DNA of 10,114 nucleotides, taken from UHGV virus genome UHGV-0885813. One strand, written 5' to 3'. Below the pieces are notes generated by a model, which worked only from the letters and a program-made list of their open reading frames with translations, was not told where the DNA came from and made no database searches. The translations under genes were made by a program, and so were the position numbers. Below are positions 2,770-4,914 of this stretch, piece after piece. This stretch comes from a virus. Position 1 is the first letter of the stretch. Each line of letters begins with the position of its first letter.

Positions 2770-3009
2770 ATGATTCGCGGAGATAAAACGGAAGAGTATC
2801 GCCTGTGTAATGACTACTGGAATAAGCGAATTATGTTCCGCGAGTATGACCGCCTGATTATCACAAAGGGATATCCGAAGCGCGACGACTTCAGTCGCAG
2901 AATTGATGTCCCATATGACGGATATGAAATCAAGACAATCACACATCCCCACTTCGGCGATAAACCGGTAAAGGTTTACGCGATAAAGGTGAATATCGGC
3001 AATGAATAA
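2770..3009 (+). CDS. ASCH/PUA-like small protein; start codon uncertain, homology appears to begin upstream of the first ATG
   Basis: Frame encodes ...NLQLAVKGEYFDAMIRGDKTEEYRLCNDYWNKRI..., which fits the phage ASCH-domain N-terminal pattern (L.L.LK.KWFD.I.SG.K.EEYR...YW.KR). The first in-frame ATG is at 2770; upstream in-frame there is only a CTG at 2734. Confidence 0.45.
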   Translation: MIRGDKTEEYRLCNDYWNKRIMFREYDRLIITKGYPKRDDFSRRIDVPYDGYEIKTITHPHFGDKPVKVYAIKVNIGNE

Positions 3010-3081
3010 CAATCCTAGCACTCGAGGGGATTTCTTTTATCTGAACTCGCTACGGCGGGTTTTGTTTTTTGGAGATGATAA

Positions 3082-3249
3082 ATGCACTTCCGAGTCACAG
3101 GTGAATGGAATGGAGAACCATTCAACAGAGTTATCGAAGCCGAGAACATCAGCGACTGCTATGACCACTGGATGCTGTGGGCGCAGATAGCACATGCAGA
3201 CGTAACCAACATTCGAATTGAAGAACTGAAAGAACACCAAGCCGCCTGA
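3082..3249 (+). CDS. small hypothetical protein (55 aa), not in the supplied ORF track
   Basis: ATG at 3082 preceded by GGAG at 3071-3074 with 7-nt spacing. Protein-like composition (MHFRVTGEWNGEPFNRVIEAENISDCYDHWMLWAQIAHADVTNIRIEELKEHQAA). Stop TGA sits in the loop of a hairpin followed by a T-run. Confidence 0.45.
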   Translation: MHFRVTGEWNGEPFNRVIEAENISDCYDHWMLWAQIAHADVTNIRIEELKEHQAA

Positions 3250-3261
3250 TGGCGGTTTTTT
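3241..3261 (+). terminator. putative intrinsic terminator (short GC hairpin plus T6)
   Basis: GCCGCC-TGAT-GGCGG followed by TTTTTT. The stem is only 5-6 bp, so it may be weak. Confidence 0.4.
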
Positions 3262-3306
3262 CTTGCCTGATTTGCAGGTTCGATTCCCTATTCGGAGATA
3301 GCACTC

Positions 3307-3507
3307 ATGCAACACGAACTACAGCCTGATTCACTGGTTGATTTGAAATTCATCATGGCCGATACTGGCTTCGGTAAAACCTTCATCTACGACCGGATTA
3401 AGTCCGGCGACCTGCCAAAAGCCAAAGTTATCCACGGACGAGCAAGATGGTTATATCGTGACCATTGTGAATTCAAAAATAAGCTCTTAAGCCGCGCTAA
3501 TGGGTAA
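3307..3507 (+). CDS. torI: AlpA/Xis-family recombination directionality factor (excisionase), TorI-like
   Basis: 66 aa. Central ...MADTGFGKTFIYDRIKSGDLPKAKVIHGRARWLYRD... fits the AlpA/Vis/TorI winged-helix family. It lies immediately upstream of the attP core and the integrase, and length and sequence match my recollection of E. coli KplE1 TorI. GGAG at 3293-3296. Confidence 0.75.
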   Translation: MQHELQPDSLVDLKFIMADTGFGKTFIYDRIKSGDLPKAKVIHGRARWLYRDHCEFKNKLLSRANG

Positions 3508-3522
3508 AATAGCGGGTAAAAT
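3502..3522 (+). repeat. direct repeat GGGTAAAAT x2 (12-bp spacing), candidate arm-type Int/RDF binding sites
   Basis: GGGTAAAAT at 3502-3510 and 3514-3522. The same 8-mer recurs at 3712-3720, and inverted as TTTTACCC at 3734-3741 and 3749-3756, flanking the core. Confidence 0.4.
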
Positions 3523-3580
3523 ATTTCTCACATCTAAAAAATATCATTCCAATCAATCCCCTGCCGCGCCAAGTAGATGT

Positions 3581-3595
3581 CTGCAGGGGACACCA
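3581..3595. other. attP core: 15-nt identity to the 3' end of tRNA-Arg(CCU) argW (CTGCAGGGGACACCA)
   Basis: Matches the T-stem 3' half, acceptor 3' strand, discriminator and CCA of argW as I recall it. Lies between the excisionase and the integrase, as expected for an argW-integrating element. Confidence 0.6.
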
Positions 3596-3690
3596 TTTAT
3601 CAGTTCGCCCCCATCCGTACCAGTCCGCAAAATCCCCTGAATATCAAGCCTTCCGTAGATTCACGGTTCGTCATGGTTCGCGTCAGATCG

Positions 3691-3720
3691 TTGACAGCCG
3701 CACTCCATGACGGGTAAAAA
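3691..3720 (+). promoter_or_regulatory. putative sigma70 promoter of the integrase gene overlapping GGGTAAAA repeats
   Basis: TTGACA at 3691-3696, 18-bp spacer, TAAAAA at 3715-3720. Overlapped or flanked by GGGTAAAAA (3712-3720), TTTTACCC x2 (3734-3756) and tandem TCAYGGTTCG x2 (3661-3680). Confidence 0.4.
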
Positions 3721-3756
3721 GTGGATAAAATAATTTTACCCACCGGATTTTTACCC
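3712..3756 (+). repeat. GGGTAAAA / TTTTACCC inverted-repeat cluster at the int 5' end (candidate arm-type sites)
   Basis: GGGTAAAAA at 3712-3720; TTTTACCC at 3734-3741 and 3749-3756. Same 8-mer as the direct repeats at 3502-3522. Confidence 0.4.
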
Positions 3757-4914
3757 ATGCTCACCGTTAAGCAGATTGAAGCAGCAAAGCCGAAAGAAAA
3801 ACCATACCGCCTTCTCGATGGTAATGGCCTGTACCTTTATGTCCCTGTATCAGGGAAAAAGGTATGGCAGCTTCGCTACAAGATTGACGGTAAGGAGAAA
3901 ATCCTGACTGTCGGAAAATATCCGCTTATGACTTTGCAGGAAGCAAGGGATAAGGCATGGACTGCGAGGAAAGACATCTCGGTTGGCATCGATCCGGTAA
4001 AGGCGAAAAAGGCTTCGTCTAACAACAATTCCTTTAGTGCGATTTACAAGGAATGGTACGAGCACAAGAAGCAAGTCTGGTCAGTAGGCTATGCAAACGA
4101 ACTTGCCAAAATGTTTGATGACGACATTTTACCCATCATCGGCGGTCTTGAGATTCAGGATATTGAGCCGATGCAACTGTTGGAAGTAATCCGCAGATTT
4201 GAAGATCGCGGTGCAATGGAGCGAGCCAACAAAGCACGCAGAAGATGCGGCGAGGTTTTCCGTTACGCTATTGTCACCGGAAGGGCTAAATATAACCCGG
4301 CACCTGACCTTGCAGACGCCATGAAGGGATACCGCAAGAAGAACTTCCCGTTTCTTCCTGCAGACCAGATCCCGGCATTCAACAAAGCACTGGCAACATT
4401 TTCAGGAAGTATCGTATCGCTCATTGCGACCAAAGTTTTACGCTACACAGCCCTAAGAACGAAAGAGCTTCGTTCCATGCTATGGAAGAACGTCGATTTT
4501 GAAAACAGGATTATCACCATCGACGCCAGTGTGATGAAGGGACGCAAAATTCATGTGGTCCCGATGTCAGACCAGGTGGTTGAACTTCTCACTACGCTAA
4601 GCTCCATCACCAAACCAGTATCAGAGTTTGTTTTTGCCGGGCGCAACGATAAGAAGAAGCCAATCTGCGAGAACGCGGTTCTACTTGTGATCAAACAAAT
4701 CGGCTATGAGGGTCTGGAAAGCGGTCACGGATTCAGGCATGAATTCAGCACGATTATGAACGAGCACGAATGGCCTGCTGACGCTATTGAAGTGCAACTG
4801 GCACATGCCAACGGCGGATCTGTGCGTGGAATTTACAACCATGCTCAGTATCTCGATAAGCGCAGAGAAATGATGCAGTGGTGGGCGGACTGGCTTGATG
4901 AAAAGGTGGCTTAA
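3757..4914 (+). CDS. intS: P4-family tyrosine integrase, IntS-like (argW-specific)
   Basis: 385 aa from the ATG at 3757 (MLTVKQIEAAKPKEKPYRLLDGNGLYL...). Shares P4/CP4-57 integrase hallmarks (..KQIEAAKPK.., C-terminal ..MMQWWADWLD..). The ORF track's GTG at 3721 is an alternative start but falls inside the promoter/repeat region. Confidence 0.9.
   Translation: MLTVKQIEAAKPKEKPYRLLDGNGLYLYVPVSGKKVWQLRYKIDGKEKILTVGKYPLMTLQEARDKAWTARKDISVGIDPVKAKKASSNNNSFSAIYKEWYEHKKQVWSVGYANELAKMFDDDILPIIGGLEIQDIEPMQLLEVIRRFEDRGAMERANKARRRCGEVFRYAIVTGRAKYNPAPDLADAMKGYRKKNFPFLPADQIPAFNKALATFSGSIVSLIATKVLRYTALRTKELRSMLWKNVDFENRIITIDASVMKGRKIHVVPMSDQVVELLTTLSSITKPVSEFVFAGRNDKKKPICENAVLLVIKQIGYEGLESGHGFRHEFSTIMNEHEWPADAIEVQLAHANGGSVRGIYNHAQYLDKRREMMQWWADWLDEKVA

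Follow-up and report, generated by a model that had tools for sequence, protein, structure and literature searches.

An argW-identical box is conserved in the leaders of TorI-family excisionase genes

A piece of argW in front of torI

Why does a piece of a tRNA gene stand directly in front of a phage excisionase gene, apart from the attachment core that matches the end of the same tRNA gene? The question is raised by a 10,114-nt stretch of virus genome UHGV-0885813, analysed here at its full length (the window). This DNA comes from a P22-like (Lederbergvirus) temperate phage whose nearest relatives are Sf6, HK620 and related phages. On its plus strand, early-left genes are followed by an intrinsic terminator, a 16-nt sequence (the 16-mer), the excisionase gene, two GGGTAAAAT repeats, the att core, the P′ arm with PintS and the integrase gene (Table 1). 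A preliminary description, made from the sequence alone, had placed a torI-like gene between the two halves of an argW-like 30-mer. The product of that gene is TorI itself: the 66-aa protein shares 100% of its residues with TorI/HkaC, as encoded in 80 IMG/VR loci and by HK620, Sf6 and Kapi1. The GGGTAAAAT repeats had been said to flank the gene; both copies lie at its 3′ end, and further copies precede int.

The window shares with the KplE1 (CPS-53)/HK620/Sf6/CUS-3 module an identical TorI as the RDF, an IntS-type (P4-like, DUF4102) integrase, assigned by DNA similarity, an attP placed between xis and int with the same core, and five TorI pentamers arranged in two blocks in the P′ arm and overlapping PintS. 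Published TorI sites are GTTCG, GATCG and GTCCG, in two blocks of 2 and 3, and the −35 and −10 elements described for PintS (PMC2951348) match TTGACA and TAAAAA in the window. The IntS/TorI module is already well known, and the 16-bp repeat has been read before: the CUS-3 record takes it for an att core, and those of HK620 and Sf6 include it in a pI-like promoter.

Table 1. Features of the excisionase-attP-integrase region (window coordinates)
Feature	Position	Strand	Basis or remark
Intrinsic terminator hairpin with T-run, closing the upstream lambda-like block	3239..3262	+	Terminator-like site in scan
TTGC-N5-TTGC, "cII site of pI-like promoter" in the HK620 and Sf6 records	3263..3275	+	Mapped annotation; alignment to lambda pI
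16-mer TTGCAGGTTCGATTCC, equal to argW nt 46-61	3272..3287	+	T-stem 5′ strand, T-loop and first CC of the 3′ strand
Family-wide box GTTCGATTCC plus C	3278..3288	+	Cross-lineage conservation
xis Shine-Dalgarno GGAG	3294..3297	+	GGAG(A)T conserved among leaders
xis/torI, 66 aa	3307..3507	+	Identical to TorI of KplE1, HK620 and Sf6; RefSeq name torI
Two GGGTAAAAT repeats, candidate IntS arm-type sites of the P arm	3502-3510, 3514-3522	+	HK620 'attP' repeat annotation
Phage-side flank left of the core, AAGTAGATGT, candidate C core-type half-site, T-loop-like	3571..3580	+	
attP core CTGCAGGGGACACCAT, argW 3′ end plus T	3581..3596	+	Junction mapping; PMC2951348
P′ arm with five TorI-type pentamers	3603..3690	+	GTTCG 3603, GTCCG 3623, GTTCG 3666, GTTCG 3676, GATCG 3686
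PintS region	3691..3756	+	TTGACA 3691-3696, TAAAAA 3715-3720
P′ arm-type repeats	GGGTAAAA 3712, GGATAAAA 3723, inverted TTTTACCC 3734 and 3749		Within the PintS region
intS-type integrase gene	3757..4914 (ATG 3757)	+	DNA ~98% identical to RefSeq 'prophage integrase IntS' genes

Upstream of the module, window positions 3006-3266 are 94.5% identical to lambda 29091-29361, the ea8.5-xis interval with its terminator included, and homology to lambda ends at about position 3266. The mosaic joint between lambda-like DNA and the IntS/TorI module falls within the annotated pI-like cII box. At the other end of xis, a 46-aa ORF homologous to HK620 hkaB and Sf6 gene 17 (window 3500-3640) starts inside the xis stop region and crosses the att core; it would be split by integration.

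The preliminary description gave a 16-nt match to the argW T-arm region. Comparison with the real E. coli gene, which is located beside intS on the chromosome and reads ...GGGCTAATTGCAGGTTCGATTCCTGCAGGGGACACCA, confirmed it: the 16-mer reproduces argW nt 46-61 without a mismatch. The other piece, at 3581-3595 (CTGCAGGGGACACCA), corresponds to argW nt 61/62-75, with 3582-3595 equal to nt 62-75. The two pieces share the C at nt 61 and, when joined, rebuild the 3′-terminal ~30 nt of the tRNA as contiguous argW 46-75, just as had been proposed. Chance had been judged an improbable source of the match, and the numbers agree: each motif is found a single time in the window, shuffled windows contain on average 0.13 and 0.05 matches to the two motifs even when up to 3 mismatches are allowed, and simple arithmetic gives ~3e-4 expected occurrences in 2 × 10 kb for a perfect 16-mer match to a 75-nt tRNA.

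Identity with argW ends at 3287/3288, where the window continues with CTATTCGGAG and argW with TGCAGGGGAC. The leading TTGC of the 16-mer is specific to the E. coli lineage and is at the same time the second half of the TTGC-N5-TTGC element, so that the element and the 16-mer have these 4 nt in common. What the genera share is CAGGTTCGATTCC, with GTTCGATTCC as its core; we refer to the latter, generally followed by C, as the box. That final C is absent from argW, the base after the 10-mer being C in most lineages and T in argW.

The 16-mer was also considered as a tRNA or tRNA-like RNA and rejected. ARAGORN detected no tRNA gene and Rfam no tRNA-like match in the window, the 3′ strand of the T-stem is absent (CCCTA instead of CCTGC), neither a cloverleaf nor a T-arm stem-loop is present, and among relatives we found no conserved stem around the box. 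A decayed full tRNA 3′ end beyond the box was likewise discarded, as 6 of 16 consensus positions match in an ungapped register, mostly by virtue of the GGA of the Shine-Dalgarno sequence, which is not significant. Rfam returned a weak, sub-threshold match to the sRNA STnc130 on the minus strand of 3230-3357 (25 bits against a gathering score of 55); it is carried mainly by the bidirectional terminator hairpin and was not retained as a feature of the box.

Lysogen junctions and the split-core reading

In E. coli lysogens, the prophage match on the xis side stops at window position 3595-3596 (~800 genomes, each covering at least 80% of the query), and the match on the int side starts at 3581, beside tRNA-Arg, in ~1,900 genomes. 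The attL and attR junctions fall exactly at 3581-3596, where the tRNA 3′ end had been presumed to form the attP core, and none falls at the 16-mer. The 16-nt core of KplE1 is the same sequence (PMC2951348), the same integration site is given for Kapi1 (PMC8787464), and every argW-targeting module that we found uses the same tRNA-Arg 3′ end.

An attP form, with xis, core and int contiguous, is present in a few E. coli assemblies, namely no107 (L007), NZ_CP081786 and similar ones. Those located on chromosomes are probably tandem prophages; NZ_CP081786 and similar modules are separate 39-kb records resembling circular phage genomes. Around the core (3556-3564, 3583-3590 and 3632-3639), ATCCCCTG occurs in direct orientation on both sides, its left copy being kept in relatives, and TCCCCTGC forms a perfect inverted repeat of the core's GCAGGGGA at a distance of 18 nt. 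These repeats may be extra core-like sites.

The preliminary description offered two explanations for the 16-mer: an RDF cassette inserted into a once-contiguous 30-nt core, or a secondary core capable of supporting alternative recombination. Three things speak for this pair of readings: the two pieces abut exactly in argW, each lysogen has at attL a direct repeat of 16 bp made up of the 16-mer and its argW counterpart, and the CUS-3 record treats the 16-mer as the att core. The term core-like is in itself reasonable, as the 16-mer has the sequence that adjoins the attB crossover block on its left. Nevertheless, chimeric queries for both products of recombination at the 16-mer, including the argW-16-mer-xis junction, gave no contiguous match among 5,426 complete E. 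coli genomes. Thirteen E. coli genomes appeared to cover the joined query and were dismissed, as the two pieces lie ~530 bp apart in them, which is the normal attP form. We found after the 16-mer neither identity to the overlap region nor a second, inverted half-site, and for this reason the 16-mer is not a working second core.

A recent insertion is contradicted by the order box, Shine-Dalgarno, xis, arm sites, core and int, which is common to the modules of eight genera and to all relatives examined, by the divergence of the Xis proteins (down to 35-39% identity) and by our finding no unsplit 30-mer in attP form; candidate unsplit 30-mers in phage genomes were only those of records that include host DNA at the prophage ends. 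In lambda-type Int biology, moreover, a working attP requires a P arm with arm-type sites abutting the core. The 16-mer is neither a recently split core nor a second crossover site, and we consider the twofold proposal largely refuted for present-day function and, taken as a whole, extremely unlikely. An ancient insertion of an RDF cassette into a contiguous core may have taken place. What stands of the preliminary interpretation is the tRNA identity, its non-chance nature and its vicinity to an IntS/TorI module with the core at 3581-3596; the recent insertion and the working second site do not.

The 16-bp direct repeat has already led an annotation astray. The first and last 16 nt of the CUS-3 record (CP000711) are the 16-mer, annotated there as 'attL core' and 'attR core' and noted as a direct repeat of 16 bp that closes the prophage on either side. 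The left end of a prophage in E. coli S88 is 100% identical to CUS-3, and in S88 (L237, 500-960) torI, the arm repeats and the true core come between the 16-mer and dsdC. With torI and the real core situated past it in this CUS-3-type lysogen, the 16-mer is not the crossover site and the CUS-3 record was cut at the wrong repeat; it is devoid of the excisionase gene and of the true attR. Automated callers of prophage boundaries that rely on direct repeats can repeat this error.

Stx2a phages that integrate at argW were examined and set aside as another system. In phage LC645409 (L325, 1-69; L326, 2159-2182), the first 24 nt of argW are duplicated (GTCCTCTTAGTTAAATGGATATAA). As the tRNA 5′ end is the part duplicated by these phages, both ends of argW serve as att sites, for different integrases.

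Conservation of the box in excisionase leaders

The box, often in the extended form CAGGTTCGATTCC, stands ahead of excisionase genes of the TorI family; the IntS/TorI modules concerned target argW and come from Escherichia, Salmonella, Erwinia, Pantoea, Edwardsiella, Serratia, Citrobacter and Enterobacter. The 16-mer itself precedes torI in K-12 KplE1 and, apart from a few single-base variants, in almost every one of 80 IMG/VR loci; further IMG/VR scans yielded many Salmonella-type and other lineages. A scan of one genome per species located it before xis in Enterobacter, Serratia, Citrobacter, Pantoea and Edwardsiella; in the same scan it was not found in Dryocola, Tatumella, Rouxiella and some Pantoea. 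Among phages, the leader of Erwinia phage phiEt88 reads ggctAGGTTCGATTCCCagcaaaggagtacaacccATG (Xis 39% identical) and that of Salmonella phage Emek ccAAGTTCGATTCCCaaaccggagataaaacctATG (Xis 52% identical), and Erwinia phage Midgardsormr38 (L089, 1655-1690) carries two tandem boxes that repeat every 16 nt (CAGGTTCGATTCCCGT CAGGTTCGATTCCCAC), with the xis Shine-Dalgarno sequence following directly.

Twelve representative lineages were compared. The 10-mer GTTCGATTCC is 100% identical in all pairs, and the distance from the end of the box to the xis ATG is 16-25 nt, mostly 18-19. The flanks are close to random: identity is 30% over the 10 nt upstream and 33% over the 5-nt spacer between the box and the Shine-Dalgarno sequence. 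The Xis proteins of these lineages share a mean identity of 57% and a minimum of 35%, and the DNA around the box cannot be aligned across the prophages of Serratia, Pantoea, Edwardsiella, Citrobacter and Enterobacter. A box that is invariant next to a spacer of random identity argues for selection on the box itself and, together with the divergence of Xis, for an arrangement that is old and under selection. The six positions 5′ of the box read TTnCAG, compared with TTGCAG in argW. This match to the tRNA is far above chance and fits descent from a tRNA fragment of at least 16 nt.

Not every leader carries the box. It is found in 52 of 74 non-redundant xis leaders; the other 22 lack it or hold a decayed copy. 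The decayed copies are few (GTTAGATCCCC, GTTAGAGCCCC and CCAGATTCCC), and the remaining boxless leaders have unrelated sequence. Missing or decayed boxes were recorded in Klebsiella Chronis, Erwinia EhrS_49, Dryocola, Tatumella, Rouxiella and some Pantoea. With ~30% of the lineages lacking it, the box is dispensable. Identical leaders stand before very different xis types (L137 and L099); leader blocks are exchanged by recombination, and for this reason the lineages with the box are not independent of one another. The hosts probably all share the same T-arm.

Two boxless leaders preserve traces of their surroundings. In Dryocola sp. (L102), the terminator and ATTGCCTG are present as in the leaders of E. 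coli and Citrobacter and then run straight into the Shine-Dalgarno sequence, which looks like a clean loss of the ~24 nt that hold the box. In E. coli SWYHX138.261ft (L006), a copy of IS911 reaches to 9 nt from the torI ATG, and only from 3306 onwards is the locus similar to the window; the leader, including the box, is gone from this strain. AlpA homologues of the Pseudomonas F116 type were tried as comparators and discarded, since their xis and int genes are convergent and their gene order is different.

What may read the box

The box is probably a control site rather than a broken or second integration site. According to the published view, the integrase is produced at a constant low level and expression of the RDF decides on excision; IntS and TorI repress PintS through the att sites, and PtorI, the control region of the RDF, is described as uncharacterised. 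In the KplE1-module literature that we examined, core, arm-type and TorI sites are described only within attL and attR, and a box of tRNA sequence ahead of torI is nowhere mentioned; searching published text for its sequence gave no result. Since our coverage of the literature is incomplete, the finding of no description of a conserved tRNA-identical box in an RDF leader leaves room for an earlier one.

Our favoured reading, held with low confidence, somewhat short of even, is that the 16-mer is an old leader sequence of xis derived from tRNA-Arg(CCU), the core of which has been under selection, and that it mimics a core-type half-site of the integrase and thereby controls xis. Descent from the tRNA, integrase binding and a regulatory effect on xis are separate steps in this proposal, each deduced from sequence comparison. 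Selection in the xis leaders of the IntS/TorI (KplE1/HK620/Sf6) family would have kept the 10-11-nt core GTTCGATTCC(C), so that a half-site mimic would sit 18-19 nt ahead of the xis start codon. Integrase bound at the box could dampen expression of xis, and it may bridge to it from the GGGTAAAAT arm sites at the far end of the 200-bp xis gene. In argW, GTTCGATTCC immediately precedes TGCAGGG; on this side, the crossover block of attB is thus bordered by the sequence of the box. The flank left of the core on the phage side reads (A/G)TTCGATGT(A/C) in relatives, a degenerate, T-loop-like copy of the box, and from this the integrase is expected to read a TTCGAT-type sequence left of the crossover.

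Known systems offer partial parallels. Like a core-type (B/C) half-site of lambda-family integrases, the box comprises the 10 bp beside the attB crossover block, on the bacterial side; unlike such half-sites or secondary att sites, it stands alone, ~300 bp from the core, and has no overlap region, no inverted partner and no recombination products. A lone core-type half-site is usually bound only weakly by lambda-type integrases. As in the autoregulation of PintS by IntS and TorI, a site of the type used by recombination proteins is found at the start of a recombination gene, but here it precedes the RDF gene, lies outside attL and attR as these are defined, and resembles a core-type rather than an arm-type or RDF-type site.

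Variation among lineages narrows down the possible readers. In lineages whose Xis helix is of the T(S/A)KYFY type instead of GKTFIY, the P′ arm contains RTTACC repeats and no GTTCG, and GGGCATA replaces GGGTAAAA among the arm repeats; the GGGTAAAAT copies of the P arm and the P′ copies change together to GGGCATA in other lineages. The box is unchanged. As it stays constant while P′ repeats and arm sites vary, it is not tied to the apparent specificity of the RDF or of the arm sites, the RDF specificity of the T(S/A)KYFY lineages being deduced from their repeats. The partners that remain constant across lineages are the (presumed) tRNA, the core and whatever reads them. The IntS/TorI module is found among unrelated phage backbones, so the reader of the box should be encoded by the module or be a universal host component. 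The box is also more invariant than the C half-sites on the phage side, which tolerate changes at 3-4 positions, and this rigidity is not explained by integrase binding alone. More broadly, the leader might carry a decoy of the left half of attB through which the integrase, or another reader of the tRNA gene, sets the level of excisionase, a version that we regard as possible but rather doubtful.

Among the other explanations, an inert relic, left over from a longer tRNA copy and passed on with the xis leader as a 'boundary sequence' without a function of its own, would agree with the annotation of 3264-3504 as boundary sequence bsq2 in Sf6, with the identical leaders found before unlike xis types, and with the existence of boxless leaders and decayed copies. 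We nonetheless consider it unlikely, given a 10-mer that does not vary between randomised flanks in 12 lineages: a recent transfer of the leader as a block would have kept the spacer too, and intermediate stages of decay are rare. Acting in the xis mRNA, the box could instead be one arm of an anti-Shine-Dalgarno hairpin or a T-loop mimic for enzymes of the TruB/TrmA type. The fixed distance to the AUG would suit such an RNA element, as would the near reverse complementarity of GGUUCGAUUCC to GGAG(A)UAAAACC in many lineages and the predicted folds that pair the box with the Shine-Dalgarno region (L099, L174 and L103); we also count in its favour that GUUCGAUUC presumably matches the GUUCNANNC-type T-loop consensus. 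Yet the folds of 12 leaders are no stabler than those of shuffled sequences (z-scores near 0), the lineages of E. coli and Midgardsormr38 have an intact box but no longer the complementarity to the Shine-Dalgarno region, the T-stem is not conserved (1-2 pairs at most in most lineages), and ARAGORN and Rfam recognised nothing tRNA-like, all of which makes a role in the RNA quite unlikely.

Autoregulation through a TorI operator, the box being the binding site of the excisionase itself, is suggested by the GTTCG at 3278-3282, which has the sequence of a published TorI site, by the five pentamers of the P′ arm of the window, two of which occur as GGTTCG like the box, and by the tandem boxes of Midgardsormr38. 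It is very unlikely in view of the lineages in which GTTCG has been lost from the P′ arm and the recognition helix of Xis differs but the box does not; besides, a TorI pentamer is only half as long as the ten-base invariant stretch, and known TorI sites work in clusters of 2-3. Scarcely any weight can be given to the remaining reading, a cII-activated, pI-like promoter in which the 16-mer would merely supply spacer and −10 sequence. The HK620 and Sf6 annotations of such a promoter span 3262-3300, and TTGCCTGATTTGC resembles lambda pI TTGCGTGTAATTGC at the homologous place; the position relative to xis, upstream DNA whose homology extends to within a few bases, and a TTGC repeat are shared with lambda. 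However, the spacing is N5 in the window and N6 in cII sites such as that of lambda pI, the first TTGC is TTAC in K-12 and many other loci, and the second is absent from other genera, which retain the box, so that the element is conserved in one lineage only. Furthermore, a promoter scan gave no promoter-like match at this place, a start so near the Shine-Dalgarno sequence would leave almost no leader, and int has its own promoter beyond attP. A sigma-70-like promoter at the box was rejected on the same scan, and the sigma-54 and sigma-28 consensus sequences do not fit by eye.

Being invariant across eight genera and matching the attB flank, the box is a concrete candidate for control of the RDF that is cheap to mutate. 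If the decoy reading is true, it would provide the control point that is missing from the RDF-driven excision switch of these tRNA-integrating phages, a widespread class, and other xis-attP-int modules should carry their own attB flank in their RDF leaders.

In four loci (L093, L298, L304 and L305), compared with window positions 3603-3756, the P′ repeats, the Xis helix and the arm repeats switch together. Judged from the repeats and the protein helix, this coordinated switch appears to be a natural specificity swap inside one module family.
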